From: Candidatus Saccharimonadota bacterium
GTDB lineage: Bacteria; Patescibacteriota; Saccharimonadia; CAILAD01; GCA-016700035
Reading direction: 5' to 3'
Length of the DNA stretch: 61,511 nt
Assembly: GCA_046350755.1 (NCBI GenBank)
Contig: JAXLZV010000003.1
Location: 1-61,511, forward strand
Part shown: positions 2,762 through 60,254 of the stretch, piece after piece
How the letters are laid out: each line of letters begins with the position of its first letter
How positions within the stretch are numbered: position 1 is the stretch's first letter
Program-made: the position numbers and the translations under genes
Notes under the pieces: model-generated
Databases searched by the model: none
Seen by the model: only the letters and a program-made list of their open reading frames with translations
Told to the model about the DNA's origin: nothing

Positions 2762-2815
2762 TCAATTATTGTAATCGGCTCGGCATACGGTGAGATATAG
2801 GCTATCATAAGTGGT

Positions 2816-3079
2816 ATGAAGATATTAGTTATTGGTGAGGCAAAATCGCCCGAGCAGCGCGAAGAACTCGACTATTTGGTCGAGCAGTGCGATAAATTGC
2901 TCGATGGGCAGGTGGAACGTCGCTCAAGTACCTCACGGGCGGGAGTTGGTACTATGGAGGCCTATGACATATTGAACACGCCTGCTGTGCTGGTGGTGCG
3001 TGACGACGGCGGTGTGGTTGCTATGTGGCAGCATACTTTGCCGCTCTTTAGTGACGTAAGCTATTATTATCATTCTTAG
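2816..3079 (+). CDS. Small thioredoxin-fold-like hypothetical protein without CxxC
   Basis: YDILNTPAVLVVRDDG...WQHTLP pattern resembles small CPR proteins found near ftsZ/nrdR (recollection); TATCAT 7 nt upstream. Confidence 0.7.
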   Translation: MKILVIGEAKSPEQREELDYLVEQCDKLLDGQVERRSSTSRAGVGTMEAYDILNTPAVLVVRDDGGVVAMWQHTLPLFSDVSYYYHS

Positions 3080-3129
3080 TCGCTCCGGCATCTTGCCGAA
3101 AACAGGCCGAAAGCAGTACAATAACAGAT

Positions 3130-6027
3130 ATGGAAAAATCTTCTCTCTCAACTTTAGCTGCGGCTGAAGAGGCTCAGCTCGCTGTTTGGGCAAAGCAGCA
3201 TACTTTTGAGCGATCAGTTCAGCAGCGTGAGGGCGCCGAGCCGTATATCTTTTATGATGGACCGCCCTTCGCTAATGGTATGCCTCATCTCGGGCATATG
3301 CTCACGTCAACGTTAAAAGACGCTGTAACGCGCTATAAGACAATGCGTGGCTATTACGTTCCGCGGCGGTTTGGTTGGGATTGTCATGGTTTGCCACCAG
3401 AAATGCTGGCCGAAAAAGAGTTAGGAATTTCAGGCAAGAAGGCGATCGAGTCGTACGGTATTGATAAGTTTGTTGGCTACTGTCGTGATTCGGTGCTGCG
3501 GTTCACCGCAGAATGGCACGAATATGTAACGCGCCTGGGTCGCTGGGTGGATTTTGCTGATGATTACCGAACGATGGACGTCGACTACATGGAGTCGGTC
3601 TTGTGGGCTTTCAAGACGCTTTATGAAAAAGGTCTTATTTATGAAGGCGAACGAGTCGTGCCGTATAGCTATGGCGCGCAAACTTCACTCAGTATATCGG
3701 AGACACGCCTTGATGATAGCATGCGTGATCGGGAGGACCTGACGGCGACCATTCGGTTTGCGCTAGCAGATGGTCGTCACCTGTTAGGCTGGACGACTAC
3801 ACCATGGACGTTGCCAGCGAATTTACTTTTGGCCGTTCATGAATCGCTTGACTATGTCGAAATGGGACGGGAGGGTGAGACAGTGGTATTGGCGGCTGAG
3901 GCCCTCGAACGCTATACAGCTGAACTCACTGGCTGGCAGCAGCAGAGGCGCTTCAAGGGCTCAGAGCTTGTTGGACTAACCTACGAGCCACTTTTCCCGT
4001 ACTTTGTAGGTACCGAGAACGCCTTTCGGGTCGTGGCGGCTGATTTTGTCGAAGCCGGAGAGGGTACCGGTGTGGTACACATTGCTCCCGGGCACGGTGA
4101 AGATGATTACTGGCTCGGTAAAGCTGAACAGGTAGCAATTTTGAGTCCCGTCGATGACGAAGGTCGATTTACTGCTGAGGTGAAAGACTACGTCGGTCGA
4201 CTAGTGTTTGATGCCAATAATGAGATTGTGGCCGACTTAGATCATCAGCATAAACTGTTCGCCAAGGCCATCATCACGCATAAATACCCCCATTGTTGGC
4301 GTACTGATGTGCCGATCATCTATCGGGCATTAAGCGCCTGGTTTGTCGATGTACCGAAGATTAAAGATCAACTTCTCAAGGCAAATCAGGAAATACATTG
4401 GTTTCCAGCTCACATTAAAGATGGCGCCTTTGGTAAATGGCTAGAGAACGCACGGGAATGGAATATTAGCCGTAATCGTTATTGGGGCGCGCCTTTACCA
4501 GTTTGGAAAACAGACGATGGTGAAATCATGGTGATGGGCTCGCTCGAAGAGATTCGTGAGCGAGCGGTGAAGCCAGAGTTGGTGACTGATCTGCATCGCC
4601 CGAATATTGATGTCGTGGAGCTTAAGACTGATTCTGGTAAGATCGCTCATCGTATCGGTGATGTGTTTGACTGCTGGTTTGAATCGGGTAGTATGCCCTT
4701 TGCTCAGCTACACTACCCGTTTGAGAATAAAGAGCAGTTTGAGTCTACGTATCCCGCTGACTTTATTACTGAATATGTGGGGCAAACTCGCGGTTGGTTT
4801 TATAATTTGCACGTCATGAGTGTTGCCCTATTTGGGAAGCCGGCCTTTAAAAATGCTGTGGCGCACGGAATTTTGCTTGGCAATGATGGTCGGAAGCTCA
4901 GTAAACGACTCGGTAATTATCCCGAGAATTCAGAAACGTTTGATCAATTTGGCGCTGACGCGATTCGATTCTACTTGCTATCTACGCCACTTGTATCTGG
5001 TGATACGGCCGCCTACGACAGTAAGTCTCTGCAGGAGGCGCAGCGGAACGTCATCCAAAGATTCAAAAACGTACACAGTTTTTATGCAATGTATGCAGAG
5101 GTTGATGCCTATCAACCGAACAAGCAACTTACCCAGCCAAAGTCTGATCACCCGCTTGATCAATGGGTACTTGCTCGGCTTTCGCAGACCGTTACGCAGG
5201 TCTCTGAGGCGGCTGATAGTTTTGATACCCCCCGACTTTGCCGCTCGTTATCTGAGTATCTCGACGATGTCTCCAATTGGTATGTCCGTCGTAGTCGACG
5301 GCGCTTCTGGAAGAGTGGTGATGATACTGATAAGCAGACAGCTTTTGCAACTCTGCACTACGTTCTTGCTACGACCGCCCAGCTGATGGCTCCGTGGGCA
5401 CCCTTTGTCGCTGATGAAATCTGGCAGGCAGTGATGTCGACTACCGACGAGGCAAAGTCGGTACATTTAAGTGATTGGCCACAGGCAAGTGAGCCGGATA
5501 TGGGGACTATTAATAAGATGGCGATTGTGCGAGAGGCCGTCACTCTTGGATTAGCTGAACGGGCGAGCGCGGGCATTAAAGTCCGCCAGCCACTGGCTTC
5601 AGCTACGATACAAGCTACCGAGAAGTTATCGACCGCGTTAACTGAGATCATTGCCGAAGAACTTAATGTGAAGATGGTTAAGTTTAAGTTCAATCCGACT
5701 AACGCAAACGGTGAGGATAGCGCCGCTACCGTCACTCTTGATACCAAGCTCAACTCTGATTTGAAGGCAGAAGGTGTGGCGCGCGATATTATTCGTTTCG
5801 TGCAGGCGGCCCGTAAGTCGGCTGGCCTGCAAGTTGATGATCGTATCGAGTTAGCGCTAGTCGGTGGTGAACAATTGACCTCTGCTCTAGCTGCGCATCA
5901 GGAGCTCATATGTGAAGAGACTCTAGCTACTGAGTTTATGACCGCTCCTACCGACCGGCAAACGGTTTCGACCGTTCAACTCAATGGTGAAGAGCTGACT
6001 ATCGGCCTGGCAGTACGTAAGGGCTAA
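3130..6027 (+). CDS. ileS: Isoleucine--tRNA ligase (type 2)
   Basis: FYDGPPFANGMPHLGH, GWDCHGLP, WTTTPWTLPAN, WNISRNRYWG, KLSKR; IleRS2-style C-terminus. Confidence 0.97.
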   Translation: MEKSSLSTLAAAEEAQLAVWAKQHTFERSVQQREGAEPYIFYDGPPFANGMPHLGHMLTSTLKDAVTRYKTMRGYYVPRRFGWDCHGLPPEMLAEKELGISGKKAIESYGIDKFVGYCRDSVLRFTAEWHEYVTRLGRWVDFADDYRTMDVDYMESVLWAFKTLYEKGLIYEGERVVPYSYGAQTSLSISETRLDDSMRDREDLTATIRFALADGRHLLGWTTTPWTLPANLLLAVHESLDYVEMGREGETVVLAAEALERYTAELTGWQQQRRFKGSELVGLTYEPLFPYFVGTENAFRVVAADFVEAGEGTGVVHIAPGHGEDDYWLGKAEQVAILSPVDDEGRFTAEVKDYVGRLVFDANNEIVADLDHQHKLFAKAIITHKYPHCWRTDVPIIYRALSAWFVDVPKIKDQLLKANQEIHWFPAHIKDGAFGKWLENAREWNISRNRYWGAPLPVWKTDDGEIMVMGSLEEIRERAVKPELVTDLHRPNIDVVELKTDSGKIAHRIGDVFDCWFESGSMPFAQLHYPFENKEQFESTYPADFITEYVGQTRGWFYNLHVMSVALFGKPAFKNAVAHGILLGNDGRKLSKRLGNYPENSETFDQFGADAIRFYLLSTPLVSGDTAAYDSKSLQEAQRNVIQRFKNVHSFYAMYAEVDAYQPNKQLTQPKSDHPLDQWVLARLSQTVTQVSEAADSFDTPRLCRSLSEYLDDVSNWYVRRSRRRFWKSGDDTDKQTAFATLHYVLATTAQLMAPWAPFVADEIWQAVMSTTDEAKSVHLSDWPQASEPDMGTINKMAIVREAVTLGLAERASAGIKVRQPLASATIQATEKLSTALTEIIAEELNVKMVKFKFNPTNANGEDSAATVTLDTKLNSDLKAEGVARDIIRFVQAARKSAGLQVDDRIELALVGGEQLTSALAAHQELICEETLATEFMTAPTDRQTVSTVQLNGEELTIGLAVRKG

Positions 6028-7711: not shown

Positions 7712-7744
7712 AGTAGAAGTGGCTTTGGCCTGTATAATGTAGAC

Positions 7745-8677
7745 ATGACAAAAGCTCTCTGTGACGTTGTAATTATTGGAAGTGGACCAGCAGCCTACAC
7801 GGCAGGTATTTACACGGCGCGTGCTGCATTGAGCACGGTGATGTATGCCGGTGACGTGCCAGGTGGGCAGTTATTGCTCACCAGCGAAGTTGAGAACTGG
7901 CCAGGCTTTCGTGATGGCATTATGGGGCCGGAGCTGATGGAGGAGATGAAAGCGCAAACTGAGCGTTTCGGAGTAAAAATTCATCACGAGTTTGTTGCCA
8001 AGGTCGTGCCAGGTAAAGGACAGCACAGTGTTGAGCTCGCGAGCGGTGAAGTTATTTCCGCGCGGACGATTATTGTTGCCACCGGCGCACAGGCTCAATG
8101 GTTGGGTCTTGAAAATGAAACTCGTTTAATGGCGAAGGGTATTTCAGCTTGTGCAACCTGCGATGGGTACTTTTTCCAGAACAAACATGTCGTTGTTGTT
8201 GGTGGTGGCGATACGGCGATGGAAGAAGCCCTGACACTCACGAAGTTTGCCGATAAGGTAACCGTTGTCCATCGTCGGGACAGTTTGCGAGCCAGCAAGA
8301 TTATGCAGGAGCGAGCACGCAAGCATCCAAAAATTTCTTTTATCTGGGATAGCGCGGTAACTGACGTGCTGGGTGAGAATATGGTATCTGGCGTTGAGAT
8401 CACAAATCTTAAAACACAGGCTCAACAAACGCTAGACTGCGGAGGCTTATTTGTGGCTATCGGCCATCTACCAGCTACTGACTTTCTCAAGGGGGTCATT
8501 GATCTCGATGAGAAGGGCTATATTGCCGTTAAAGATAACGTCTTTACGAGTGTTGACGGGATTTTTGCAGCTGGCGACGTGGCTGATAAGCGCTATCGCC
8601 AGGCGATTACTGCCGCTGGCGATGGTTGCAGGGCAGCTCTTGAAGTTGAACATTATCTAGCAAATTTGGACGGCTAA
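7745..8677 (+). CDS. trxB: Thioredoxin-disulfide reductase
   Basis: GSGPAAYTA, CATCDG redox motif, GGGDTAMEEA, GIFAAGDV. Confidence 0.97.
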   Translation: MTKALCDVVIIGSGPAAYTAGIYTARAALSTVMYAGDVPGGQLLLTSEVENWPGFRDGIMGPELMEEMKAQTERFGVKIHHEFVAKVVPGKGQHSVELASGEVISARTIIVATGAQAQWLGLENETRLMAKGISACATCDGYFFQNKHVVVVGGGDTAMEEALTLTKFADKVTVVHRRDSLRASKIMQERARKHPKISFIWDSAVTDVLGENMVSGVEITNLKTQAQQTLDCGGLFVAIGHLPATDFLKGVIDLDEKGYIAVKDNVFTSVDGIFAAGDVADKRYRQAITAAGDGCRAALEVEHYLANLDG

Positions 8678-13314: not shown

Positions 13315-14214
13315 TTATTTTGGACTTGTCGAACTGCTAGGGCTCGAGGGTCCGGTGGTTGCGGTGTTGTAGTCGACATGATTAATGCTGCCGAACTCAT
13401 TGACTGGCAAGAGCCGGAGACTAGCGATTCCCACCATTTGGCGCTTCGGAATTGGCCCAAGGAAGCGTGAATCTTGGCTGGCGCCAGGATTACGGTTATC
13501 GCCGAGGACAAACACGCTATCGGCCGGCACGGTCCACTCGCCGTCGCCCTCGAGAGCGATATTGCCAACATACGGTTCATTCAAGACGAAGCCATTTGGG
13601 TTGGCATCATTGATGACTCGTACTTGTCCGTTTCTTACTACCACTTTTTCGCCCGGCAGACCGATAGCGCGTTTTATATAAAAGACATCACGTGCCATAC
13701 CGACCGGCGTGAAGATTACGACATCGCCACGCTGAATATCAAGTTTGTCGGCCTGTCCGGTCATTTTTTTCCAGCTAGCATCAAATTTTGAGACGATGAG
13801 GTAATTACCGTTTTCAAGAGTTGGCTCCATCGAAGAGCCATCAACGTACCAGGCCTGAAAGACGAAGGTGTGGACGAAATAGACGAGGATAGCCGGAACT
13901 ACTACCCAGGAAACAAGAAAACCCAGTACGCGTCGCCAGAGGGGTTTTTCGGTTGGCTCATCGCTGTCGCCGCCACTATCAGTTGAGGCTGCCTCTGCGG
14001 TCGGCGGTGTCTGGCTGGTGGGAGCTGGAGAGGACGGGGGGGTCGGCTGTGGACTCGCTGGTGGCTGAACGGAAAGTGGTTGTGGTTTGCTGAGCTGGCT
14101 GATCGGCTGCTGGGCAGCTGGTACCGACCCAGCCGGTGGCGCTGGTTGCGGCGCGACGGGCTCAGGCTGACTAGGTACTGCTGGCTGAGGGGTAGGATCA
14201 GTGTTTGGATTCAT
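13315..14214 (-). CDS. lepB: Signal peptidase I with Pro-rich N-terminal extension
   Basis: VDGSSMEPTL (Ser), YIKRAIGLPG (Lys), VLGDNR...DSRFLG; one TM. Confidence 0.94.
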   Translation of the reverse strand: MNPNTDPTPQPAVPSQPEPVAPQPAPPAGSVPAAQQPISQLSKPQPLSVQPPASPQPTPPSSPAPTSQTPPTAEAASTDSGGDSDEPTEKPLWRRVLGFLVSWVVVPAILVYFVHTFVFQAWYVDGSSMEPTLENGNYLIVSKFDASWKKMTGQADKLDIQRGDVVIFTPVGMARDVFYIKRAIGLPGEKVVVRNGQVRVINDANPNGFVLNEPYVGNIALEGDGEWTVPADSVFVLGDNRNPGASQDSRFLGPIPKRQMVGIASLRLLPVNEFGSINHVDYNTATTGPSSPSSSTSPK

Positions 14215-14288
14215 TCTTGAACTAGTATACCGACTTTTTAGGCTTTACGCACTTGGAGTCGAGTAGGGCTATCAGCTATACTGTCCTT

Positions 14289-15689
14289 ATGCTAATCCGT
14301 TCTCGTCGTCCGGCGTCTCAGTCTCCCAAAAGTCCACATCCCGCCGAACAACAGGGCTCATATAGTCAATTTCGGATTCGACGTCGGTCGCGTAATAAAA
14401 AACTCATCATAGCAGCAGTTCTCATTGTACTGGTCGGGGTACCGAGTTTTTTGGTGCTAAAAAGCTTGCGGGCGGCGGCCAATGTGCTCCAGGCGCACTC
14501 TGGTGCCACGACTGACGCCCTCAAGCAACCCGCTCAGGCACCCGATGCGAAAGTTGAAGCCGAAGGTCGCGTGAATATTGTTTTACTGGGTGTCGGTGAC
14601 GCCGCACACGCTGGTTCTACACTGTCTGACACGATGATTGTGGCCAGCGTCGATCCTGAGACCAAAGAAGTGGCGATGCTATCTTTGCCGCGAGACCTCT
14701 ATGTGCCGATACCTGGTCGTGGTTACGATAAGATCAACGCCGCGCACGCCTATGGAGAACTCAAAAAGCAGGGTGAAGGCCCAAATCTTGCGAAAGAAGT
14801 AGTTGGTAATGTTCTCGATGTGCCAATCCATTATTTTGTACGGGCTGATTTTACAGGCTTTCGTAAGGCTATCGACACGCTGGGCGGCGTTAAGGTTGAT
14901 GTGCCGGTTGGTTTATCTGACAGTGAGTACCCCTGTGATAATGATGAGCGACGGGCCTGTGGCTTCTCGATCAAGGCAGGTATGCAGCAGATGAATGGCG
15001 CTTTAGCCCTCAAGTATGCCCGTTGTCGGAAGGGTACTTGTGGTAATGATTTTGGTCGAGCCAGTCGTCAGCAGCAGGTCCTTATGGCGATGCGCGAGAA
15101 AGCTTTGACGCTGTCAACTCTATCGAACCCAGCGAAGCTGGCGAGTCTGATTGACACCGTAGGCAGCCATGTTCGGACTGATTTGGGGACCGAAGAGCTA
15201 GGTCGGCTGTCCGAGATTTTGCGAGAAGTTAAGCCAGAGGCGGTAGTCAGTCGGGTAGTTGATGGCGAGCAGGAAAAACTAGTGCGCTCAACGATGATCG
15301 ATGGGGCCAGCGTAGTCGTGCCAGAGCTTGGGCCGAAAAACTATGACGCGATTCGTGCCTTTGCTCATACTCTGTTTTTTGATCGTCATATCGTCAGTGA
15401 AAATATCCCGATAACTGTCATCGATGCTAGTGGCAAGGCCGGACAAGCACAAAAGGTCGCCGACTTACTCAAGACCTATCGATATAATGTCATCGAAGTG
15501 AAGAGCGCCACTCAGATCGCATCCAGTTCGACACTGGTGGCTACAAAGGTCGATTTGGGCTCGTACACGCGCCGCTATCTTGAGCATCGTTTCGGCTTGA
15601 CGGCTTCGGAGGTTCAGGATGGCCAAAGTCCACAGCTGACGCTTACAATAGGTAGTGACTACACTGGCCTAAACGGAAAGAATCAATAG
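14289..15689 (+). CDS. LCP (LytR-CpsA-Psr) family protein with LytR C-terminal domain
   Basis: RVNIVLLG, SDTMIVASV, SLPRDLYV, KINAAHA, DFGRASRQQQV; N-terminal TM. Confidence 0.93.
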   Translation: MLIRSRRPASQSPKSPHPAEQQGSYSQFRIRRRSRNKKLIIAAVLIVLVGVPSFLVLKSLRAAANVLQAHSGATTDALKQPAQAPDAKVEAEGRVNIVLLGVGDAAHAGSTLSDTMIVASVDPETKEVAMLSLPRDLYVPIPGRGYDKINAAHAYGELKKQGEGPNLAKEVVGNVLDVPIHYFVRADFTGFRKAIDTLGGVKVDVPVGLSDSEYPCDNDERRACGFSIKAGMQQMNGALALKYARCRKGTCGNDFGRASRQQQVLMAMREKALTLSTLSNPAKLASLIDTVGSHVRTDLGTEELGRLSEILREVKPEAVVSRVVDGEQEKLVRSTMIDGASVVVPELGPKNYDAIRAFAHTLFFDRHIVSENIPITVIDASGKAGQAQKVADLLKTYRYNVIEVKSATQIASSSTLVATKVDLGSYTRRYLEHRFGLTASEVQDGQSPQLTLTIGSDYTGLNGKNQ

Positions 15690-18672: not shown

Positions 18673-19736
18673 GATTGTTCGGCAAGCGCGCGATCGATAT
18701 CGGCTTGATGGAGGGCTTCGTGATGTTCATCGAGCGCTCCGTCCATAAAACGACTGATGCCATGGGTCGTAAAGCCAATCCGATGATCGGTGATGCGGTC
18801 TTGTGGAAAATTATAGGTCCGAATCTTTTCCGAGCGGTCCCCGGTGCCAATCTGTGAGAGTCGGGCATCACCGAGTTCTTTGCGCCGCTTTTCTTCCTCG
18901 AGCGCCAGCAAGCGAGAGCGTAGGACGTTGAGGGCTTTAGCGCGGTTCTTGATCTGGCTTTTCTCATCCTGACAGGTGACGACGATCCCGGTTGGCAGGT
19001 GAGTTAGGCGGACGGCCGAGTCGGTCGTATTGACGCTCTGTCCGCCATTGCCACTCGAGCGGTACACATCGACGCGGATCTCATTATCGGCAATCTCGAG
19101 CTCGGTTTCCTCGGCTTCGGGGAGGACGGCTACCGTCACGGTTGAAGTATGGGTGCGACCTTGAGACTCGGTGGCCGGGACACGCTGCACGCGGTGGACA
19201 CCTGATTCATACTTAAAGGCCGCATAGGGTGCAGCACCGCTGGCCTCGAGAATGACTTCTTTGTAACCGCCGACTTCATTGGGGGATTCGGAGAGAATCT
19301 GGAGTTTGAGGCCATGTGTTTCGGCATAGCGGGCGTACATGCGAGCGAGTTCGCCAGCGAAGAGGGAGCTCTCATCACCACCAGCACCAGCGCGGATTTC
19401 GATAATGGCGGTTTTATTATCGTGCGGATCGATGGGCACGAGAGCAGCACGGACCTTGTCCTGCAAGCTTTCCAGCTTTGACTCAAGCTGTGGAATCTCG
19501 GCGGTTGCCAACTCACTCATCTCCGGATCATGAGCCAGCGTACGGGCCTCCGCAAGATCGTCTTCAGTCTTGGTGACATCTTCAAAGAGGGCAAGCTTAG
19601 TCATGAGATCGCGCTGCTCGTGCACCAAGGCGGCTGCTTTTGGGCTAGCATAGACATCTGGACGTGCTAAATCAGCCTCGATTTGGGCGAGTCGAGTCTT
19701 CATCTTCTCAATGGTGGCGGGATCGATCATACTCAT
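18669..19736 (-). CDS. prfA: Peptide chain release factor 1
   Basis: [22 protein letters not shown] (PAT), [19 protein letters not shown]. Confidence 0.97.
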
Positions 19737-19805
19737 AGTCCTATTTTACAGCAGAAAGACGCCAGGTCAGCGGACCGCAGCGTCTTTCGTGAGCAATGTA
19801 TTTAG

Positions 19806-20177
19806 TTACTTGTCGGCAGATTCGTCGATTTTGGCATCTTTAGCAGGCGCGTCAACGGTATCGGCCTTGATCTCTTTTTTGATCTCCGCGAGAGCCGCTT
19901 TGGCATCTTTCGTCTCGACGGCTGGCTTGTCAGCTTTCTTGCTGGCCTTTGGCTTGGCGGTTTTCTTGATCTCGCCACTCTTCTTGCGGAGAGCCTCGAA
20001 GCGATCCACGCGACCGGCGGTGTCGACGAGCTTCTGCTTGCCGGTGTAGAACGGATGGCAATTCGAACAGATTTCCACGGTAATCTCTGGCACCGTAGAG
20101 TGGCTCGTGAAGGTCGTGTTACAACCGAGGCAGGTTACCTTGGTCTCGACCCAGTCGGGATGAATATTCGCTTTCAT
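19806..20177 (-). CDS. rpmE: 50S ribosomal protein L31 (Zn-binding type) with Lys/Ala-rich tail
   Basis: [31 protein letters not shown]. Confidence 0.96.
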
Positions 20178-20250
20178 AACTCGAGTATGATACCAGGTTT
20201 GATCAGGCGGGTCAAGAACGGATTAGTCGGTAGTATTGCAGGAAAACCAC

Positions 20251-23806: not shown

Positions 23807-23834
23807 TCGATACAAACCTGATATAATGATCGGT

Positions 23835-24392
23835 ATGCAAGAAATTCTCAAAAACTCCGAAGAGGCGATGAAGCGTGGCCTCGACTACTTTCAGACTGAA
23901 ATGGATGGCGTCCAGGCTGGTCGGGCGCAGACTAGCTTAATTGAAGGTGTGAAGGTTGATGCCTATGGTCAAGAAATGACTATGAAGCAGGTTGGTACCA
24001 TCTCAACGCCCGATCAACGTACCCTTCAGGTCCAGGTGTGGGACACTGCGTTGGTGTCAGCGGTTGAGAAGGCGATTCGTGACAATCAGTCGCTCGGTCT
24101 GTCCCCCGCTACAGATGGCAATATGGTGCGTATGCAGATCCCGGCCATGACTGAAGAGCGCCGTCTCGATCTGGTGAAGGGGCTGTCTGAAAAACTCGAA
24201 GCCGCGAACGTCACGCTGCGAAACGCTCGTCATGATGGTCTCAAGAAGGCTAAGACCGCCAAAGAAGACGGCTCGATGCCCGAAGACGAGTACTTCAAGA
24301 CCGAAAAAGCTCTCGACGAACTGATCAAAAAGTATCAAGCGCAAGCCGAGCAGATTTTCGCGGCAAAAAAACAAGAAGTACTGACAGTCTAG
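23835..24392 (+). CDS. frr: Ribosome recycling factor
   Basis: GRAQTSLIE, MTEERRLDLVK, RNARHD; ATG 23835 is 7 nt after TATAAT. Confidence 0.95.
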   Translation: MQEILKNSEEAMKRGLDYFQTEMDGVQAGRAQTSLIEGVKVDAYGQEMTMKQVGTISTPDQRTLQVQVWDTALVSAVEKAIRDNQSLGLSPATDGNMVRMQIPAMTEERRLDLVKGLSEKLEAANVTLRNARHDGLKKAKTAKEDGSMPEDEYFKTEKALDELIKKYQAQAEQIFAAKKQEVLTV

Positions 24393-24440
24393 CGACGTTT
24401 TTCAGTCCGTCCTCAGAAAATATCAGCTATAATACTGGTA

Positions 24441-25520
24441 ATGATTTTGATTATTCTGCTGGTGCTGTTGGTCTTCTCAGTACTCGTGATCGCTCACGAG
24501 TTTGGGCATTTTATCGTTGCCAAACGTAACGGTATCAAGGTCTATGAATTTGGGGTTGGTTTCCCACCCAAGCTGTGGGGTAAAAAGTGGCGCGGCACCG
24601 AGTATACGGTGAATCTCTTGCCGCTTGGCGGTTTTGTTCGTCTCGAAGGCGAAGATAATGAATCGAAGGGTCCGAAGAGCTTCGCTTCGAAGTCCCTTTG
24701 GGTGAAGACGAAGGTCCTGATGGCGGGTGTTGCGATGAATACGCTGATCGCTTGGGTTATCTTTACTTACTTGGCGGCGACTGGCATTCCGCAGATCTTT
24801 CCCTTTAAGATGCCCAGCCTTGGCCCCATCACCCCGATAGAGACTACAGCGCCTAAACTGGTGGTATTCCAAGTCGGCAAAGACAGCGTGGCAGAGGCAG
24901 CCGGTATTACCACCGGAGACTCCCTGGTTACGATCAACGGCCAGGCTTTTCGAGATGAAGCGGCGCTCAAAGAGTTTACGAGTGCCAATGCCGGCAAATC
25001 TGTAAAAATTGTCTATACCCACAGTGGTGTAGACAAGACTGTCGATGCCACCCTTGGTAATGATCCATCGAAGGGGATACTTGGTGTGGTTGCCATTCCA
25101 CAGACGAAAGATAAGTACGAGTGGTGGGCAGCACCAATCGCCGGGCTGCTGATAATGTGGCAGGCGATGTTGGCAACAGTCGTGGCCTTTTTTGGCGCCA
25201 TCGCGACTCTCCTCACCCAGTTTAAAGTGGCTGAAACGGTGACTGGCCCCGTGGGTGTAACTGCGGTTTTTGGGCAGGTTGTACGTTTTGGCATGGACTA
25301 TGTATTAGTGCTGGTAGCCTCGATATCGTTATCGCTGGCAGTTATTAATGCCCTGCCATTACCGGCGCTCGATGGTGGTCGTTTATTCTTGCTGGTCTTG
25401 AAACGACTTGGTGTTCCGATCAGCGATAAGTCGGAAACCTGGGCTCACGTCGCGGGTTTTGTAGCCTTGATTGCACTAGGAATAATCATTGCTCTCAGTG
25501 ACATCAGCCGTTTCTTCTAG
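24441..25520 (+). CDS. rseP: RIP metalloprotease RseP (M50) with PDZ domain
   Basis: HEFGH, LLPLGGFV, AGVAMN, NALPLPALDGG. Confidence 0.94.
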   Translation: MILIILLVLLVFSVLVIAHEFGHFIVAKRNGIKVYEFGVGFPPKLWGKKWRGTEYTVNLLPLGGFVRLEGEDNESKGPKSFASKSLWVKTKVLMAGVAMNTLIAWVIFTYLAATGIPQIFPFKMPSLGPITPIETTAPKLVVFQVGKDSVAEAAGITTGDSLVTINGQAFRDEAALKEFTSANAGKSVKIVYTHSGVDKTVDATLGNDPSKGILGVVAIPQTKDKYEWWAAPIAGLLIMWQAMLATVVAFFGAIATLLTQFKVAETVTGPVGVTAVFGQVVRFGMDYVLVLVASISLSLAVINALPLPALDGGRLFLLVLKRLGVPISDKSETWAHVAGFVALIALGIIIALSDISRFF

Positions 25521-37859: not shown

Positions 37860-37884
37860 TGTGCTATCTGGTATCATAAGGGGA

Positions 37885-45964: not shown

Positions 45965-46003
45965 GTATCTGGAAAGAGATCTTGCAGGTATAATGAGAAA
46001 CGT

Positions 46004-47086
46004 ATGAAGCCGACGATTGATACATTATCGCGTTTACTCGCCGAAGTCCGCGAGGCCAAAGCCCAGCTCCAGCTCGATGACGAGCGGGGGCGGCTTCAAG
46101 TGCTCGAAGACCAGATTGCCGCTCCAGATTTCTGGAATGATGCGGAAACCGCGCAGAAAATCAGCCAGGACGCCGCTCAGCTCCGGAATTATCTAGCTGA
46201 TTGGGATAAGCTTGAGGACGAGCTGACAACAAATCTAGAGCTAGCGGAGATGTCAGACGAGTCGCAGGCTGATGAATTTACTGAACTCACGACCGATCTG
46301 GAGTCCCGAGTGGCCGCCGCTATGATCACCGTGAAGCTCTCGGGAGCGCATGATAAGCTGCCGGCGATTATGCAGCTGTCAGCGGGAGTTGGCGGTACGG
46401 ATGCCCAGGATTGGGCCGAGATGCTGCTGGCGATGTACACTCGGGCGGCCGAGAAGCTTAGCCTCAAAGCCGAACTCGTTGATATCTCGCGCGGTGAAGA
46501 AGCCGGTATAAAGTCGGCCACCCTTGAGTTCACTGGGCCTTTTGCTTTTGGCAAGCTCAAGAGTGAAAAGGGTGTGCATCGGTTAGTCCGACTGTCGCCA
46601 TTTAATAGCGATAATCTCCGTCAAACCAGTTTTGCCCTGGTGGATGTAGTGCCAGAGATCCCAATGGAAGAAATTGAGCTGGACGAAAAAGACTTGCGGG
46701 TTGATGTCTATCGCTCCGGCGGGCACGGGGGACAGAGCGTCAATACCACTGATTCGGCGGTGCGGATTACGCATCTTCCGACCGGCACCGTTGTAGCGAT
46801 TCAGAATGAACGCTCGCAGTTGAAGAATAAGCAAAAAGCCATGAGTATTTTGGCGGCTCGCTTGGCCGAATTGGCGCGTGAACAGCATCTGGAGTCGGTT
46901 GCGGAATTACGTGGCCAGGTAAAGTCTGCCGATTGGGGTGCCCAAATTCGCTCTTATGTCTTGCACCCCTACCAGAAAGTGAAGGATCACCGCACGGACT
47001 ACGAAACCAGCGATACCGATGGTGTCCTGGCTGGCGAGATCGAACCGTTTATCGAAGCATATCTTACCAAAAATCTGAGTCAATAA
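46004..47086 (+). CDS. prfB: Peptide chain release factor 2 (no programmed frameshift)
   Basis: GVGGTDAQDWAEML, GVHRLVRLSPF (SPF), [27 protein letters not shown]. Confidence 0.97.
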   Translation: MKPTIDTLSRLLAEVREAKAQLQLDDERGRLQVLEDQIAAPDFWNDAETAQKISQDAAQLRNYLADWDKLEDELTTNLELAEMSDESQADEFTELTTDLESRVAAAMITVKLSGAHDKLPAIMQLSAGVGGTDAQDWAEMLLAMYTRAAEKLSLKAELVDISRGEEAGIKSATLEFTGPFAFGKLKSEKGVHRLVRLSPFNSDNLRQTSFALVDVVPEIPMEEIELDEKDLRVDVYRSGGHGGQSVNTTDSAVRITHLPTGTVVAIQNERSQLKNKQKAMSILAARLAELAREQHLESVAELRGQVKSADWGAQIRSYVLHPYQKVKDHRTDYETSDTDGVLAGEIEPFIEAYLTKNLSQ

Positions 47087-48340
47087 TTATTCTCGGTGTT
47101 CAAGTTGCGCGCCGAGAGCGGTCAAGCGTTCTTCGATGTGCTCGTAGCCGCGGTGGATGTGCTCGATGCGATCTATGACGGTTGTACCTTGGGCAATTAA
47201 AGCCGCAATAAGCACGGTGGCACCAGCGCGAATGTCAAAGCTCACGAGATCAGCGCCAATCAGTGGCGTCGGGCCGGTGATGATGGCCGTGTGGGCATCG
47301 CGCATCGCCGCGGTTGCCCCCATGCGCTGGAGCTCAAAGAGGTATTGCAAGCGGCCTTCATAGAGGGTTTCGAAAATCTCAGAGGTGCCATCACACTGAG
47401 TGAGGAGCACGGACAGTGGGGCTTGTAAGTCACTAGGAAAATTTGGATACGGCTGGGTGCGAACTTTGATTGGCCGATACTCGCCACCGGGCATGATGTG
47501 GACCTTAGTCGGACTGTCTATCCGGTAATTCACGCCGATTTGGTCAAAAATCGTGAGCAGCGAATCATGCTCATCGACCAAAAAATCTTCGATCATGACG
47601 TTGCCGTGGGAGGCGGCAGCGGCGATCGCAATCGTGCCACTTTCCAGCTGGTCGGCCGAAACCCGCCAATCAGTGCCGTGCAGTCGGTCGACACCACGGA
47701 TCACCAGGTCATGTGTGCCGACTCCCTCAATGTGGGCGCCCATTTTGATGAGCAATCGAGTTAGCTCGATAACGTGTGGCTCAACGGCGACCATGCGGAG
47801 CTCAGTAGTGCCCTCAGCCAGCACGGCTGCCATGATCGCGTTCTCTGCTCCAGTGACGGTGAGCTCACCGAGGACGACTCGAGCTCCACGCGGACGGCCG
47901 CTGATAGTGGTATGACCCTGTTCGCGACGGACATCTAGGCCAAGTTGGGCAAAGGCCTTGAGGTGGCTGGCGATTGGTCGGGCGCCGATGATGTCGCCAC
48001 CAGGCTGGGCGATCGTTATTTCGCCGAGACGAGCGACTGCAGCACCAAGGATGAGAACTGACGCCCGCATTTTGGCCGTCAGCGCGTCGGGGATCACGCG
48101 AGAGTGTAGTTCGCGGGCAGTGACTTGTACCGTATGGTCATGGCGCTCGACATCAGCTCCGAGCGACTCGAGGATTTCGATCATCACCCCGACATCGCTA
48201 ATTTCGGGAACATTATGAATAGTGACAGTTTCGTCGGTCAGTAGGCAGGCCGCGAGCATTGGGAGAATGGCATTTTTTGAGCCGGCCGTTTGCCATATGC
48301 CTTCGAGCCGGGTTGGCCCGGAAATTGCAAGTTTTGTCAT
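47087..48340 (-). CDS. murA: UDP-N-acetylglucosamine 1-carboxyvinyltransferase
   Basis: GSKNAILP, KMRASVL, PGGDIIGARP, PYPNFPSDLQ, DIRAGA, HRGYE; ATG 48340. Confidence 0.95.
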   Translation of the reverse strand: MTKLAISGPTRLEGIWQTAGSKNAILPMLAACLLTDETVTIHNVPEISDVGVMIEILESLGADVERHDHTVQVTARELHSRVIPDALTAKMRASVLILGAAVARLGEITIAQPGGDIIGARPIASHLKAFAQLGLDVRREQGHTTISGRPRGARVVLGELTVTGAENAIMAAVLAEGTTELRMVAVEPHVIELTRLLIKMGAHIEGVGTHDLVIRGVDRLHGTDWRVSADQLESGTIAIAAAASHGNVMIEDFLVDEHDSLLTIFDQIGVNYRIDSPTKVHIMPGGEYRPIKVRTQPYPNFPSDLQAPLSVLLTQCDGTSEIFETLYEGRLQYLFELQRMGATAAMRDAHTAIITGPTPLIGADLVSFDIRAGATVLIAALIAQGTTVIDRIEHIHRGYEHIEERLTALGAQLEHRE

Positions 48341-48402
48341 GTTCGTATTGTAGCAGTTCATAAGCGGTTTCTGGCCAGCGAATATGCTAAAATAGAACGA
48401 AA

Positions 48403-49083
48403 GTGATCCTCTTAGACCGCGTTACCGTTATGTATCCCAATAAAACCGTCGCACTTTCCGGCGTCAGTTTGCATATTCAACCAAAAGAGTTCGTAACCGT
48501 AGTCGGTTCTTCCGGGGCTGGTAAATCAACGTTAATTCGCTTACTTATCAAGGAAGAAGTTCCGACCAGCGGGAAAATCATTGTTGGCTCAATTGACTAC
48601 GACACGATCGATAAAGCGAGTATCCCTCACTTGCGTCGCCGTATCGGCGTTGTTTTCCAAGACTTTAAACTGCTGCCTAATCTGACGGTTTATGAAAATG
48701 TGGCTTTTGCGCTCGAAGCCAGCGGCGTGAGTAACCACGAGATCAAGCGGGCGGTACCGAAGATTTTGCAGCTGGTCGGCCTAGCTGAGAAGGCCAATAG
48801 TTATCCAAAAGAAATTTCTGGCGGTGAAAAACAACGGGTGGCAATCGCCCGGGCGCTGGTGCGTAATCCGAAGATTTTGATTGCCGATGAGCCGACTGGT
48901 AACCTCGATCCGAAAAACTCCTGGGATATCATCGAGCTCCTGCTGAAGATCAATAAATTCGGCACGACAGTGCTCTTGACCACCCACAATAAGGAAATCG
49001 TGAATGCTTTAAAGCGTCGGGTGATTACTATTCAGAATGGTCGGATTCTGAAGGATGAGAAAGTGGGGCGCTACGTTTTGTAG
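48403..49083 (+). CDS. ftsE: Cell division ATP-binding protein FtsE
   Basis: GSSGAGKST, VVFQDFKLL, ISGGEKQR, ADEPTGNLD. Confidence 0.95.
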   Translation: MILLDRVTVMYPNKTVALSGVSLHIQPKEFVTVVGSSGAGKSTLIRLLIKEEVPTSGKIIVGSIDYDTIDKASIPHLRRRIGVVFQDFKLLPNLTVYENVAFALEASGVSNHEIKRAVPKILQLVGLAEKANSYPKEISGGEKQRVAIARALVRNPKILIADEPTGNLDPKNSWDIIELLLKINKFGTTVLLTTHNKEIVNALKRRVITIQNGRILKDEKVGRYVL

Positions 49084-52339: not shown

Positions 52340-52410
52340 TCATTCTGAGCACAAACTGAGAGTCGAGACCACTTCCGCCAGATTACGAAAACCGGTACAA
52401 TGGTTTTTAT

Positions 52411-53631
52411 ATGGGTGAGGAAAAAGATCTGTCGAAGTCGCCAGCCAATCCGGCTACTCGTTCGACTCCGACGTTTTCGTTTGGCAAAGTAGTTGCGATT
52501 AGTGCCGCGTTATTAGTCGTCGGCTTAGTCGTCGGCTGGTTTACTGCCCGAGCGTATCCACAATTCACCTTGGCTCAATCGGCTTCACCATTGGAGACTC
52601 AACAGTTTCAAGAGGTTCGATCGATCCTGAAGAATAGTTATGATGGTGATCTAGATCCCGCCAAGCAGGGAGAGGGGGCAATTAGCGGTTACGTTGCGGC
52701 TCTCGGTGACCCTTATACTACCTATCTCAACCCGCAACAGGCAAAAGAGCTGGCCGATGACTTGAAAGGCGAACTGTCGGGTATCGGGGTTGAAGTCGGC
52801 ATCAAGAAAGATCGCTTGACGGTCATATCGCCGATCGATGGTACGCCCGCCGCAAAGGCCGGCTTAAAGTCGGGCGATGTCATAGCCTTGATCGATGGTC
52901 AAGACACCTCGCAAATGACTCTAGATGATGCGGTCAAAAAAATCCGTGGTGAAAAGGGGACCGAGGTAAAACTGACTATTCTGCGCGGTACCGAGTCCCC
53001 AAAAGAGATAATCGTGACGCGTGATACCATCACCGTTTCGAGCGTGAATGTCGAAGTTAAAGATGGCAATGTTGGCTATATACGCTTGCGGCGATTCGGC
53101 GATGATACTGATGAGGCGATTCGTAAAGCCACTGCTGATCTGGCGGCCAAGGGTATCAATAAAATTGTGCTTGATCTGCGAGATAATCCCGGTGGTTATC
53201 TCAACAGTGCGGTGACGGTGACATCTGAGTTCTTGGCTGACGGAACCGTGGTTGAGGAGCGAGGTCGTCATATCGCGACCAAGAAGTTGACCGCCAACCC
53301 GGGTGGCAATCTCACACAAGCTAAGCTCGTCATATTGATTAACGAGGGTTCGGCTTCGGCTTCAGAAATTACGGCTGGTGCCCTTAAGGACAATGGTCGA
53401 GCGATACTGGTTGGCGAGAAGAGTTACGGTAAGGGCAAGGTCCAGGAAGTGAAGGAGTTAAGCGGGGGCGCCCAGCTGAAGGTTACTGTGGCAAGTTGGT
53501 ATACGCCGAATGGTGTGAACATTTCCAAAGAGGGTATTAAGCCAGATATTGAAGTTAAAAACTCGAGCGAAGACTCAAATGCTGGACGTGACCCTCAGCT
53601 TGATCGCGCGCTGCAGGAGGCCAAACAATAA
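52411..53631 (+). CDS. ctpA: Carboxyl-terminal processing protease (S41)
   Basis: LGDPYT, GIGVEV PDZ, LDLRDNPGG, SASASEI, SYGKG. Confidence 0.94.
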   Translation: MGEEKDLSKSPANPATRSTPTFSFGKVVAISAALLVVGLVVGWFTARAYPQFTLAQSASPLETQQFQEVRSILKNSYDGDLDPAKQGEGAISGYVAALGDPYTTYLNPQQAKELADDLKGELSGIGVEVGIKKDRLTVISPIDGTPAAKAGLKSGDVIALIDGQDTSQMTLDDAVKKIRGEKGTEVKLTILRGTESPKEIIVTRDTITVSSVNVEVKDGNVGYIRLRRFGDDTDEAIRKATADLAAKGINKIVLDLRDNPGGYLNSAVTVTSEFLADGTVVEERGRHIATKKLTANPGGNLTQAKLVILINEGSASASEITAGALKDNGRAILVGEKSYGKGKVQEVKELSGGAQLKVTVASWYTPNGVNISKEGIKPDIEVKNSSEDSNAGRDPQLDRALQEAKQ

Positions 53632-56147: not shown

Positions 56148-57299
56148 TTAATCCTTGCTTAATTTGATGATTGAGCGCCCGACGGATTGATGACTGCGGT
56201 GATAACTGAGTCGATCGAGCCCGCGGGGCGCAAACTGCCTAAGAGTATACCCCATATCAGATAGATCGTCAAGGATATCAAGCTGTAAAACCGGCTTGCC
56301 GCTAGGGTGCCATTCAGGTAGGGCGAGTACGATCATCAGCGGCCCGTCAAAGCGCTGCAGACGACGGAAAAAGTCTAGGTAGAGTGGCTTGAGCTCAAGG
56401 GCTTCACGCTGCATGCGCGCCAGCTCAGTTTGTGCAAAGTCAGGGTTTCCCAGATAGCCCTCGGCGACAATGTGCGTAGTTTGCGGTGGCAGGCTGAGTT
56501 GGCGAGCATCTTGCTGGCGGATCAAAGCTTCGTGGTGAGGTAAATGATACGTGGCTTCCAGCCAGGCTAAATTTTGTTGAGTAGCACGCACCATGGCATC
56601 TGAGATGTCGCTCCCCGATACGCGTGCGTCCATGAGCCGTGCTTCTTGGAGCACTACTCCAGTACCGCAGAATGGGTCATGAACGTGTGATTGGGGGGTG
56701 ATTTCGGCCAAATTTAAGAGGATTTGGGCAAGTTTTGGGGGGAGCATACCGACGCGGGCATCACGAGCTGGTCGGCCGCGATCACGTAAGCCATAGGATT
56801 CGATATCTTGAAACCAGGTGGTTCGACCAATCGCGAGCTGCTGATCGGGCCCCTCGAGGATGATGAGCTCGGCGTTCGGGGTGTCGACTAAGCGATTATT
56901 CAAGAGTTGGCCGGCATTTAAGAGGTTATCGGTCTTTGGGTAAACGAGGCGGAGCTTGCGGCCGTAACGCTCGGCATAGGCCCGCTTGAACTTGCCTCCT
57001 ACCCGCATGAGCTCACGAGCCGGTAGGGCCGGCGCCGACAAGCCGACACTCACTTTTGAAGTCTCAGCATCTATTTCCCCAAGGGCCACGACCAGCTCGG
57101 CGGCAAGGTGGGTCGATCGTTTGAGGGCAGATGCCACAATTTTGCCACCCCGCATAACTCCCCCGAGACGATTCCAGGCTGGAGTGGCACCGAGACCAAA
57201 GGCGACGTTGTGAGTAAATACCAGCTCGCCTTGGGTTTGGGCGGCCAATTCAGCTTCTGAAAGTGCGGTCTCACGACCAAGTAGGGCAAACCATTGCAT
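56148..57299 (-). CDS. TRM11-like SAM-dependent (tRNA) methyltransferase
   Basis: GMLPPKLAQILLNL, DPFCGTGVVLQEA, GSDIS, EGYLG; ATG 57299. Confidence 0.85.
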   Translation of the reverse strand: MQWFALLGRETALSEAELAAQTQGELVFTHNVAFGLGATPAWNRLGGVMRGGKIVASALKRSTHLAAELVVALGEIDAETSKVSVGLSAPALPARELMRVGGKFKRAYAERYGRKLRLVYPKTDNLLNAGQLLNNRLVDTPNAELIILEGPDQQLAIGRTTWFQDIESYGLRDRGRPARDARVGMLPPKLAQILLNLAEITPQSHVHDPFCGTGVVLQEARLMDARVSGSDISDAMVRATQQNLAWLEATYHLPHHEALIRQQDARQLSLPPQTTHIVAEGYLGNPDFAQTELARMQREALELKPLYLDFFRRLQRFDGPLMIVLALPEWHPSGKPVLQLDILDDLSDMGYTLRQFAPRGLDRLSYHRSHQSVGRSIIKLSKD

Positions 57300-57375
57300 A
57301 GCGTCCACTATACGGGCTGACTGCGGTAGCTACAACAAGGTCGCCAAAATTCGGCTGAGGCCGTAAACTAGGATT

Positions 57376-58401
57376 ATGAAGTTTCGTCATTTCGCTTTTT
57401 TCCTGATGCTCATCTTGCTCGGATTGCTGGTATTGCGTAACCAAGGTCAGATTCAGCAGTTTATTGATCTCTTTCGTGAGCTCAATTTTCTGATCCTACT
57501 CCTGATTTTGCCGGTGCGGTTTGGGTATTACTGGTCAAACAGTCGCTTTTACGAACATTTCTTTAAGCTCTATCGTAAACATATTCCTTTTAAGGAGTTG
57601 TTTGCGGGGGTGGTTGGTATGAATTTTGTGAATACTGTGGTGCCGACTGCTGGTCTGTCGGGAGCAGCCTATTTTGCACAGATATTTAAGCGCGATGTTA
57701 CCCAGCGTCAGTCATATTTGGCGCAGTTTTTTTGGTATATTGCCACTTTTCTCAGCCTCGTGATTGCGCTGGGGATTAGTTTTACTATCTTATTCTTCTC
57801 GCAATCAATTGCCCAAATCAGCTTCCGGCTGACACTCATCGTGACGAGCTTCGTGTTGCTGGTTGCTTTAGCGGTCATCGCAGTAACCTTAAACCCACGT
57901 CTATTTGAGAGGCTGTTATTTATTATGACGCGGCCAATTAACTGGCTGCTGAAGCTCATTCGCAAGGGCGCAATCGACGAGCGACAAACCAAGCGTTTCG
58001 TGGACGGCTATACATCATTAATCGAGTTATTTTCAACCGATCCTCGTCAGGCGATACGGCCGTTTACTGATGCCTTACTATGTATCGGCTTCGAAGTCTT
58101 GAGTATCTATATCGTCTTTCTCGCGTTTGGTAACTGGGTGAATCCGGGCGCGGTCGGCGCTTCGTATGTCTTTGCCCTGTTGTTATCTGGACTGTCCTTC
58201 TTCACGTCAGGCATCGGGATGTATGAGGCAACGATGGTAGCAGTCGCGGTGGCTCTGGGTATACCTTTTAACTTGGCGTTCGGCGTGACAGCTGTCTATC
58301 GCTTGATTGCGCTCTGGCTATTTATCCCCATTGGCTTGTATTTTTACAAGCGACAAACCATTGATAAAGTCCATCAAGCTGAGCAGTCAGATGGAAAATG
58401 A
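57376..58401 (+). CDS. Lysylphosphatidylglycerol synthase TM-like (UPF0104) membrane protein
   Basis: FVNTVVPTAGLSG, GIGMYEATM, YRLIALWL; about 8 TM. Confidence 0.85.
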   Translation: MKFRHFAFFLMLILLGLLVLRNQGQIQQFIDLFRELNFLILLLILPVRFGYYWSNSRFYEHFFKLYRKHIPFKELFAGVVGMNFVNTVVPTAGLSGAAYFAQIFKRDVTQRQSYLAQFFWYIATFLSLVIALGISFTILFFSQSIAQISFRLTLIVTSFVLLVALAVIAVTLNPRLFERLLFIMTRPINWLLKLIRKGAIDERQTKRFVDGYTSLIELFSTDPRQAIRPFTDALLCIGFEVLSIYIVFLAFGNWVNPGAVGASYVFALLLSGLSFFTSGIGMYEATMVAVAVALGIPFNLAFGVTAVYRLIALWLFIPIGLYFYKRQTIDKVHQAEQSDGK

Positions 58402-59590: not shown

Positions 59591-59810
59591 AGAAGACCTA
59601 GCCGAGCTCGAGACGCTAACCACTCAGCTCGAATCTGATGATATTGATCTAGATACGGCCCTCAAAGCATTTGAGAAGGGTAGTGAGTTGGTTAGTCGAC
59701 TGCAGTCTCAGCTTGAGGCCGCAGAACTGAAAATTACTCAGATACAGGCTCAGGCCAGTGGGTCGACTCGCGAGGATGCCCCAGAAGAGGAATCCTTGGC
59801 AGATAGCTAG
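59553..59810 (+). CDS. xseB: Exodeoxyribonuclease VII small subunit
   Basis: FKEDLAELETL..LE..DIDLDTALKAFEKG..L..AELKI. Confidence 0.93.
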   Translation: MTKPIAKSASTFKEDLAELETLTTQLESDDIDLDTALKAFEKGSELVSRLQSQLEAAELKITQIQAQASGSTREDAPEEESLADS

Positions 59811-59843
59811 ACAAAAACCTACAATTGTGGTATAGTACCGCGC

Positions 59844-60254
59844 ATGCACAATGATTATGCCACTATTCTCTTAAAACAGTACTCCAGCGCCAGCAATGAG
59901 CGCTCGGCTGCCCACGCTATGCGCGTGCTTGATCGTCATATTCTGGAAGCCTTTCCGGCTGAGAAGCGCGAGGTAGTTCAGCAGCTCTTACCAGGCCTGA
60001 CCCGTCGTCGCCTAGGGGCACGTTTTGGTCTCACTCGTAAGTTACCAACTGGCGAGGCTTTGGCTTACCCGGTGCTGATAGATAAAGTTCGTCGTGAACT
60101 GAGTTTAACTGACGAAGCCGAAGCTCAATCAATGTTTGATGCTTATCTCAAAGCTCATTTGTCGCTCATGACCAATAGCACCCGTCTGCAGTTTGCTTCA
60201 CTGTGTGAAGGCGATATACTGCGCTCGTATTTGCGGACCGTCGACGTTAGCTAA
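59844..60254 (+). CDS. Hypothetical protein
   Basis: 136-aa helical ORF; TATAGT 7 nt upstream of ATG. Confidence 0.7.
   Translation: MHNDYATILLKQYSSASNERSAAHAMRVLDRHILEAFPAEKREVVQQLLPGLTRRRLGARFGLTRKLPTGEALAYPVLIDKVRRELSLTDEAEAQSMFDAYLKAHLSLMTNSTRLQFASLCEGDILRSYLRTVDVS

Follow-up and report, generated by a model that had tools for sequence, protein, structure and literature searches.

Leaderless-type starts of core genes beside Shine-Dalgarno-led genes in a Saccharimonadia genome

The window analysed here is the whole 61.5-kb contig JAXLZV010000003.1 (C3) of a Candidatus Saccharimonadota genome of 921,564 bp in 8 contigs, with a GC content of 51% and an estimated completeness of ~98%. The best matches of its SecA protein were found in Candidatus Saccharimonas and Saccharibacteria genomes from metagenomes, at 58% identity. 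A TANNNT hexamer resembling a promoter -10 box lies a few nucleotides before the start codon of many genes of the window (Table 1; the number of nucleotides between the hexamer and the start codon is called the gap). An earlier note on this DNA had listed 19 such hexamer and gap pairs, and all 19 were present exactly as described. The gene names ileS, trxB, lepB, LCP, prfA, rpmE, frr, rseP, serS, secA, prfB, murA, ftsE and ctpA were borne out by NCBIfam profiles, and the products of the genes starting at 2816, 37885 and 59844 gave no Pfam or NCBIfam match. Overall, the genes of the window were distributed into 19 of leaderless type (a box 6–9 nt before an ATG and no Shine-Dalgarno (SD) sequence), 28 led by an SD, and 16 unclear. 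Judging from the sequence, it is very likely that these two classes correspond to two modes of translation initiation used side by side in this genome.

Genes were called with a self-trained six-frame Markov caller, which yielded 964–991 genes and a coding density of 90%, and their starts were selected by a naive-Bayes chooser from the coding score, the start codon, and an SD or -10 feature. As a control for a chooser that uses the motif, decoys and motif-independent profiles were included. The profiles are start-independent and take in, for each gene, all the in-frame ATG, GTG and TTG codons of its N-terminal zone. The decoys consisted of the box position offset by 10–22 nt; they were used instead of the motifs TNNNAT and ATNNNA, which are poor decoys as they overlap TATAAT itself. 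Boxes were scored with a position weight matrix (PWM) of 10 nt and a site threshold of at least 7 bits, or with a rule untrained on the focal genome that asks for a match of at least 5/6 to TATAAT. Genes and proteins were named from NCBIfam profiles, Pfam being searched as well for the open reading frames (ORFs) without a family.

The positional profile of the box showed a sharp peak immediately upstream of ATG codons over the whole genome. Among the N-terminal in-frame ATG candidates, the frequency of TANNNT was 8.2%, 5.4%, 3.0% and 4.0% at gaps 6, 7, 8 and 9, respectively, for a background of ~2% at gaps 12–30 and 0.7% for internal ATGs. The PWM hits at gaps 6, 7, 8, 9, 10 and 11 numbered 57, 34, 22, 27, 8 and 8, respectively, over a background of ~6, and no clear excess of boxes was seen genome-wide at gaps 10–11. 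With the untrained rule, a box stood at gap 6–7 before 7.9% of the N-terminal in-frame ATGs, as compared to 0.85% of the in-frame internal ATGs, 0.43% of the out-of-frame ATGs and 0.37% of the intergenic or antisense ATGs (N-terminal versus other ATGs, odds ratio of 18, Fisher P = 1e-62). No TANNNT peak was observed genome-wide for GTG and TTG candidates: a PWM box at gaps 6–9 preceded 140/1119 ATG candidates, 2/498 GTG candidates and 4/560 TTG candidates (P = 1e-34). In the window itself, TANNNT was found at gap 6–7 before 15 starts for ~2.6 expected from the background of 2% per position (binomial P = 3e-8), and at gaps 6–11 before 23 starts for ~7.5 expected (P = 4e-7).

The SD words GGAG, AGGA and AGGAG peaked 5–9 nt before the candidate starts. 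The 16S gene, present in a single copy (contig C2, 49488–51014, minus strand), ends with ...GGATCACCTCCTTTCT and possesses an intact CCUCC anti-SD tail. The presence of an intact anti-SD together with box-led starts indicates that the genome uses both initiation modes. Two checks that the earlier note had put forward thus gave clear answers, the 16S tail being canonical and the positional enrichment over all starts being positive in the focal genome as well as in its relatives up to the level of the class (see below). Box and SD seldom occurred at the same start, as 12 of the 125 ATG genes with a box at gap 6–7 displayed an SD match of at least 4 nt, compared to 371 of the 742 genes devoid of a box at gaps 5–11.

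Genome-wide, the leaderless-type class contained 167–169 genes, for 30–56 genes with the offset decoys. After subtraction of the decoys, about 115–140 genes (12–14%) are of leaderless type, within an overall range of ~12–17%. SD-led starts outnumber them, with ~40% of the genes. The leaderless-type genes are concentrated among potential transcript heads and include ileS, serS, prfA, prfB, frr, rpmE, trxB, murA, mreB, rseP, lepB and ctpA. The class made up 18 of the 290 tightly packed genes (upstream gap of at most 15 nt, 6%) versus 149 of the 664 others, and reached 33% of the genes with an upstream gap of 16–50 nt and 21% of the divergent genes. With the number of transcription units approximated, leaderless-type genes represented ~22% of all potential transcript heads, and their share of the transcripts was estimated at roughly 20–25%.

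The boxes were then characterized as promoter elements. The consensus of the hexamer-aligned sites was tGgTAtAAT. A TGn motif was located ahead of 61 of 187 boxes (33%), compared to 7.4% of all genomic TANNNT, and a TTG was found 16 times with a 17-bp spacer and 11 times with an 18-bp spacer, other spacers being represented ~3.5 times each. The -10 hexamer spans positions -12 to -7, so that a gap of 6 nt places +1 on the A of the ATG. At the gap-6 sites, position -1 was occupied by T in 57/79 cases (72%), by C in 16/79 and never by G (92% pyrimidine), which fits the preference of transcription start sites for a pyrimidine at -1 and a purine at +1, the latter being the A of the ATG. By their TGn, their weak TTG and their pyrimidine at -1, the boxes behave as sigma-70-type promoters, in which the extended -10 probably compensates for the weak -35. 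Because the -35 is weak, a two-hexamer sigma-70 scan missed most of these promoters; the scan found the terminators before secA and prfB. Terminator-like hairpins were located directly upstream of the promoters of secA and of the gene at 37885, where they are strong, and upstream of the prfB promoter, where the hairpin is weak. With these hairpins in place, there is little space for a transcript coming from upstream. Transcription can start as well on G as on A, but no box is associated with GTG starts, and the ATG-only constraint should therefore act at translation.

Table 1. Boxes and start codons in the window. Coordinates run from the hexamer to the end of the start codon; the start is the first base of the codon.
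Gene or product	Start	Box	Gap (nt)	Coordinates	Strand	Remarks
87-aa ORF	ATG 2816	TATCAT	7	2803..2818	+	
ileS	ATG 3130	TACAAT	7	3117..3132	+	NCBIfam
trxB	ATG 7745	TATAAT	6	7733..7747	+	NCBIfam
lepB	ATG 14214	TATACT	9	14212..14229	-	near-leaderless; diverges from LCP gene
LCP-family transferase	ATG 14289	TATACT	6	14277..14291	+	ORF-track start TTG 14253
prfA	ATG 19736	TAAAAT	6	19734..19748	-	TG-extended
rpmE (L31)	ATG 20177	cTGGTATCAT	9	20175..20192	-	
frr	ATG 23835	TATAAT	7	23822..23837	+	ORF-track start 23826
rseP	ATG 24441	TATAAT	7	24428..24443	+	
mreB	ATG 26291	cTGGTAGACT	7	26278..26293	+	absent from the earlier note's list
serS	ATG 33026	cTGGTATACT	6	33014..33028	+	
secA	ATG 35187	cTGGTATAAT	11	35170..35189	+	directly after terminator 35131-35153
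932-aa ORF	ATG 37885	cTGGTATCAT	7	37872..37887	+	
prfB	ATG 46004	TATAAT within AGGTATAAT	9	45989..46006	+	
murA	ATG 48340	TGcTACAAT	6	48338..48352	-	
ftsE	GTG 48403	TAAAAT	9	48388..48405	+	no SD
ctpA	ATG 52411	cGGTACAAT	9	52396..52413	+	near-leaderless
methyltransferase-like gene	ATG 57299	TATAGT	7	57297..57312	-	ORF-track start GTG 57308
flippase-like membrane protein	ATG 57376	TAAACT	6	57364..57378	+	diverges from 57299
136-aa ORF	ATG 59844	gTGGTATAGT	7	59831..59846	+	

Three divergent pairs of genes, murA/ftsE (48341–48402), 57299/57376 (57300–57375) and lepB/LCP (14215–14288), are separated by an intergenic segment of only 62–76 bp. Each of these segments contains two back-to-back leaderless-type promoters.

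The conservation of this layout was followed in relatives, whose kinship is given as the rank shared with the focal genome, from genus up to phylum, and for which genome-scale samples of 400 kb or 200 kb were taken. For serS, 28 relatives from the same genus, family or order could be evaluated; in 24 of them TANNNT was located 6–9 nt before the residue-1 ATG, and in 18 of these 24 at exactly 6 nt despite differing spacer letters. Of the exceptions, one had switched to an SD and three were apparently operon-internal. Across the phylum the situation of serS was mixed, with leaderless-type genes, SD-led genes, or leaders of 20 nt. The prfB box was present at 6–11 nt in nearly all relatives. At the genome scale, the occurrences of TANNNT before N-terminal ATG candidates (gap 6 + gap 7) amounted to 34 + 32 in the same-family genome G007 for a per-gap background of ~12, to 47 + 36 and 52 + 33 in the same-order genomes G028 and G022 (backgrounds of ~16 and ~13, respectively), and to 41 + 47 in G040, which belongs to another order of the same class (background ~15). 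Among other Patescibacteria, the peak was weaker in G033, G053 and G080 and absent from G054. The latter genome, which served as the negative control of the pipeline in place of Escherichia coli, displayed a clear SD peak and a leaderless-type class equal to the decoy (33 versus 34), showing that the peak is not a product of the pipeline. In G033 (loci L221–L230, same phylum, 36% GC), a -10 peak was present at gap 6–7 but the SD peak was nearly missing. The phylum seems to be highly heterogeneous in its initiation modes.

The classes were also compared between orthologues, taken as reciprocal best hits with aligned N-termini. In the same family, 31/35 leaderless-type genes were retained as such and 5/84 SD-led genes had a leaderless-type orthologue (P = 4e-19). 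The corresponding values were 33/52 and 10/133 in the same order (P = 1e-14), and 7/15 and 5/35 in the same class (P = 0.03). Overall, SD-led genes had turned leaderless-type in only 4–14% of cases. The mode of initiation is thus conserved for each gene individually, and this conservation decays with distance. Whether the leaderless expression of core genes such as serS, prfB, ileS and frr is an old, gene-specific trait of all Saccharimonadia, patchy elsewhere in Patescibacteria, appears to us an evenly balanced question.

The earlier note had also claimed that the boxes correct several starts of the ORF track, and this was upheld by profile alignment (murA and rpmE), by a conserved N-terminus (prfB) and by terminator hairpins (prfB and 37885). 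Residue 1 coincided with position 1 of the profile for serS, murA (48340 and not 48361), rpmE (20177) and ftsE, and the alignment to the profile began within a few residues of residue 1 for ileS, trxB, secA and prfB. The prfB orthologues all start with MKP(I/T)I at the ATG equivalent to 46004. The ORF-track TTG of prfB at 45962 falls in the T-tail of the weak terminator-like hairpin (-6.9 kcal/mol), and the upstream hairpin motif GGGGAGTTTTGG recurs at the same position in close relatives. The secA terminator (37831–37860) is made of an 11-bp hairpin at about 37831–37856, ATATCCTCC..GGAGGATAT, with a free energy of -15.1 kcal/mol, followed by TTTTTGTGTG. This hairpin has as its 3' arm the GGAGG that precedes GTG 37861; the GGAGG mimics an SD, which drew the start chooser to this codon. 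Since this GGAGG lies within the secA terminator and cTGGTATCAT stands at 7 nt, ATG 37885 is a better start than GTG 37861. No orthologue of the 37885 protein was found downstream of secA in the relatives. Two further features of these genes can be mentioned. In prfB (45962–47086) one frame is open throughout, and the programmed +1 frameshift site known from many bacteria is missing. The rpmE gene (19806–20177, minus strand) encodes 123 amino acids, of which residues 1–62 form the L31 domain, followed by an unmatched extension of ~60 residues.

From the geometry of the boxes, their promoter features, the lack of SD, the exclusive use of ATG, the gene context and the conservation, we infer that transcription starts at the ATG and that ribosomes load directly onto it. 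Transcription would begin at the A of the ATG for gaps of 6–7 nt, or 1–3 nt upstream for gaps of 8–9 nt, and the mRNA would thereby have no room for an SD sequence. By analogy with the mapped leaderless mRNAs of other bacteria, ribosomes would bind the 5'-terminal AUG directly, which would account for the ATG-only peak. In the SD-led genes, which amount to ~40% or more of the genes and are especially operon-internal ones, a canonical SD pairs with the intact CCUCC anti-SD.

It could be argued that the boxes are real promoters and that the adjacent ATG is incidental or opens a tiny upstream ORF, the true start being situated downstream. The starts are indeed predictions, those of 2816, 37885 and 59844 have no family match to fix the N-terminus, and 5'-terminal AUGs on leadered mRNAs were reported in E. 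coli (PMC4965119). We nevertheless find this explanation very improbable: residue 1 is position 1 of the profile for serS, murA and rpmE and lies within a few residues of it for ileS, trxB, secA and prfB, the N-termini of the orthologues are conserved from the box-adjacent ATG, and the peak is confined to in-frame N-terminal ATGs (7.9% versus 0.4% out-of-frame). Another view would consider the hexamers not as promoters, but as SD-independent enhancers or A/U-rich ribosome landing sites on leadered mRNAs. A/U-rich unstructured upstream regions aid SD-independent initiation in some bacteria; the start regions of the focal genome are weakly structured, and a short S1 homologue is present. However, the fixed T1, A2 and T6, together with the TGn, the TTG at 17–18 bp and the pyrimidine at -1, are features of RNA polymerase and not of the ribosome. 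Among operon-internal genes, where such an enhancer would be most needed, the motif is almost missing, GTG and TTG starts are devoid of it, and the terminators directly upstream at secA, 37885 and prfB leave no upstream transcript to read through, all of which makes ribosome landing sites highly unlikely.

A chance or compositional artefact would result from AT-rich intergenic DNA and a selective choice of starts. TANNNT is a loose motif, found at ~2% per position upstream, so that the window of 6–11 nt matches ~12% of the starts by chance, and gaps 10–11 are without clear enrichment. Such an artefact is almost inconceivable as a general explanation, and for gaps 6–9 it is refuted by the sharp positional peak, by the 169 genes as compared to 30–56 decoys, by the binomial test in the window (P = 3e-8) and the Fisher test in the genome (P = 1e-62), by the peakless control G054, and by the layout kept in orthologues.

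Several observations weigh against leaderless initiation or limit its extent. Gaps of 8–11 nt imply leaders of 1–5 nt, and in Caulobacter reporters translation fell approximately two-fold per added base (PMC8459731). In the secA orthologues the position of the box drifts: it is located 10–14 nt upstream within the family, and 20–30 nt upstream with an additional SD (AAGGAG, AAGGGG) in other families. With its gap of 11 nt, secA itself probably has a leader of 4–5 nt and would not be strictly leaderless. The ftsE gene starts with GTG, a codon without a genome-wide peak, and shows a box at 9 nt and no SD; its status as a leaderless gene is doubtful. The range of 6–11 nt given in the earlier note for leaderless or near-leaderless starts therefore holds for gaps 6–9, which are enriched, and not clearly for gaps 10–11, with secA short-leadered and ftsE on a GTG. 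The SD-led starts are also commoner than the leaderless-type ones, which are not the dominant mode. In the wording of the same note, "pervasive" was too strong (12–17% of the genes for ~40% SD-led), and a main mode for core genes is a fair description. The predicted 5' structure is compatible with leaderless initiation and does not discriminate between the two classes: the minimum free energy of the first 25–50 nt was equal in leaderless-type and SD-led starts, both of which fold far less than internal ATGs. Lastly, the gene calls and starts come from a simple in-house caller, the start chooser of which uses the motif itself.

The accepted hallmark of leaderless genes in bacteria is a TANNNT ~10 nt upstream of the start, and the TA-led genes (Zheng et al. 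2011) as well as group C of GeneMarkS-2 are found mostly in Actinobacteria and Deinococcus-Thermus (PMC3160421, PMC6028130). In Actinobacteria leaderless genes represent >20% of the genes (18.9% in Streptomyces coelicolor), and in group C 25–50% of the transcripts (PMC3160421, PMC6028130). The focal genome shares with these groups a Pribnow-type box 6–8 nt before the first genes of operons, without SD, the other genes being of SD type. With ~12–17% of its genes, it falls inside the values published for Actinobacteria or slightly under them, and its estimated transcript share, roughly 20–25%, is at the low edge of group C. The profile of group A (an SD before most genes and negligible leaderless use) was not found, the SD being present before ~40% of the genes and the leaderless-type class not being negligible. 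As described for the TA-led genes of other phyla, orthologues share their initiation mode less and less often as phylogenetic distance grows (PMC3160421). Unlike group C, the lineage concerned is Saccharimonadia/Patescibacteria, with a reduced genome of 0.9 Mb and 51% GC, and its boxes show a complete TAtAAT, often extended by TGn, in contrast to the low-information TAnnnT of the high-GC groups.

In mycobacteria, leaderless and SD-led genes likewise coexist, with a -10 near the start codon, housekeeping genes included (PMC3898074, PMC4633059). GUG is about as frequent there as AUG (PMC8459731), whereas the signal of the focal genome is ATG-only, and mapped transcription starts and ribosome profiling support the mycobacterial case, whereas the present one was deduced from the sequence. 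Translation of leaderless mRNAs shows a strong preference for AUG, and extra leader bases inhibit it (PMC8459731). The strong preference for AUG is shared with Caulobacter crescentus, in which non-AUG codons account for 4.4% of the leaderless mRNAs, and in which fully leaderless mRNAs are far commoner than those with short leaders, matching the fall-off from gap 6–7 to gap 10–11 observed here (PMC8459731). Caulobacter is however a proteobacterium with a high GC content, and the accessibility of the 5' end separates the classes there, which it does not in the focal genome (PMC8459731). Closer to the present lineage, a 2025 promoter study, which used 188 transcription start sites of Nanosynbacter lyticus inferred from RNA-seq, noted only an unusually variable distance between the -10 and the start site (PMC12641261), and a preprint on the TM7x transcriptome does not mention leaders or promoters. 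A full-text literature search found no paper describing leaderless starts in Saccharibacteria, Patescibacteria, the Candidate Phyla Radiation (CPR) or TM7.

The leaderless-type layout is a real, robust and lineage-conserved feature, of a mechanism that is already well known and in a lineage that is new for it. As the mechanism is well known, the surprise for a specialist should be moderate. If leaderless expression of core genes is indeed an old trait of all Saccharimonadia, patchy elsewhere in Patescibacteria, the CPR would constitute a third large leaderless-rich lineage of bacteria after Actinobacteria and Deinococcus-Thermus, with a flavour of its own, namely ATG-only starts and an extended -10 with a weak -35, beside a canonical SD system. 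Leaderless-rich bacteria would be joined by a mid-GC lineage with reduced genomes, in which individual genes keep their mode even between members of the same class. Proposals exist that place the CPR within or near the Terrabacteria, home of the other leaderless-rich phyla, and such an old trait would fit this placement. Gene callers centred on the SD would introduce systematic errors of start codons in CPR annotations. Within the window, this concerns the starts given by the ORF track for the LCP gene, frr, rpmE, prfB, murA and 57299, and probably for 37885. A misplaced start makes the N-terminus, the signal peptide and the intergenic region wrong as well, and this in a lineage that is known almost exclusively through metagenomes. 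The layout also bears on the expression of essential translation and envelope genes in an ultra-small bacterium that depends on a host. For the few Saccharibacteria that can be cultivated, TGnTAtAAT followed after 6–7 nt by ATG provides a promoter model on which reporters and genetic tools could be built.

Two other features of the genome were noted. The ribosomal protein S1 homologue (contig C2, 18091–19101, minus strand) is 369 amino acids long with about four S1 domains; it scored 229 bits for a cut-off of 577 bits of the rpsA profile, of which it matches positions 12–343 out of 516, and it is conserved in all 31 genomes searched, with a similar size in the 30 relatives. In the window, the region 40001–45000, and especially 43293–44540, forms a GC-rich block (59% versus 52%) with a reversed GC skew, in which two long ORFs overlap, 43353–44465 on the plus strand and 43293–44540 on the minus strand. 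No Pfam match was obtained for these two ORFs or for the neighbouring one at 41131–42324, and NCBIfam likewise gave none for the GC-rich ORFs. The block may be foreign DNA, or may hold one gene of ambiguous strand.

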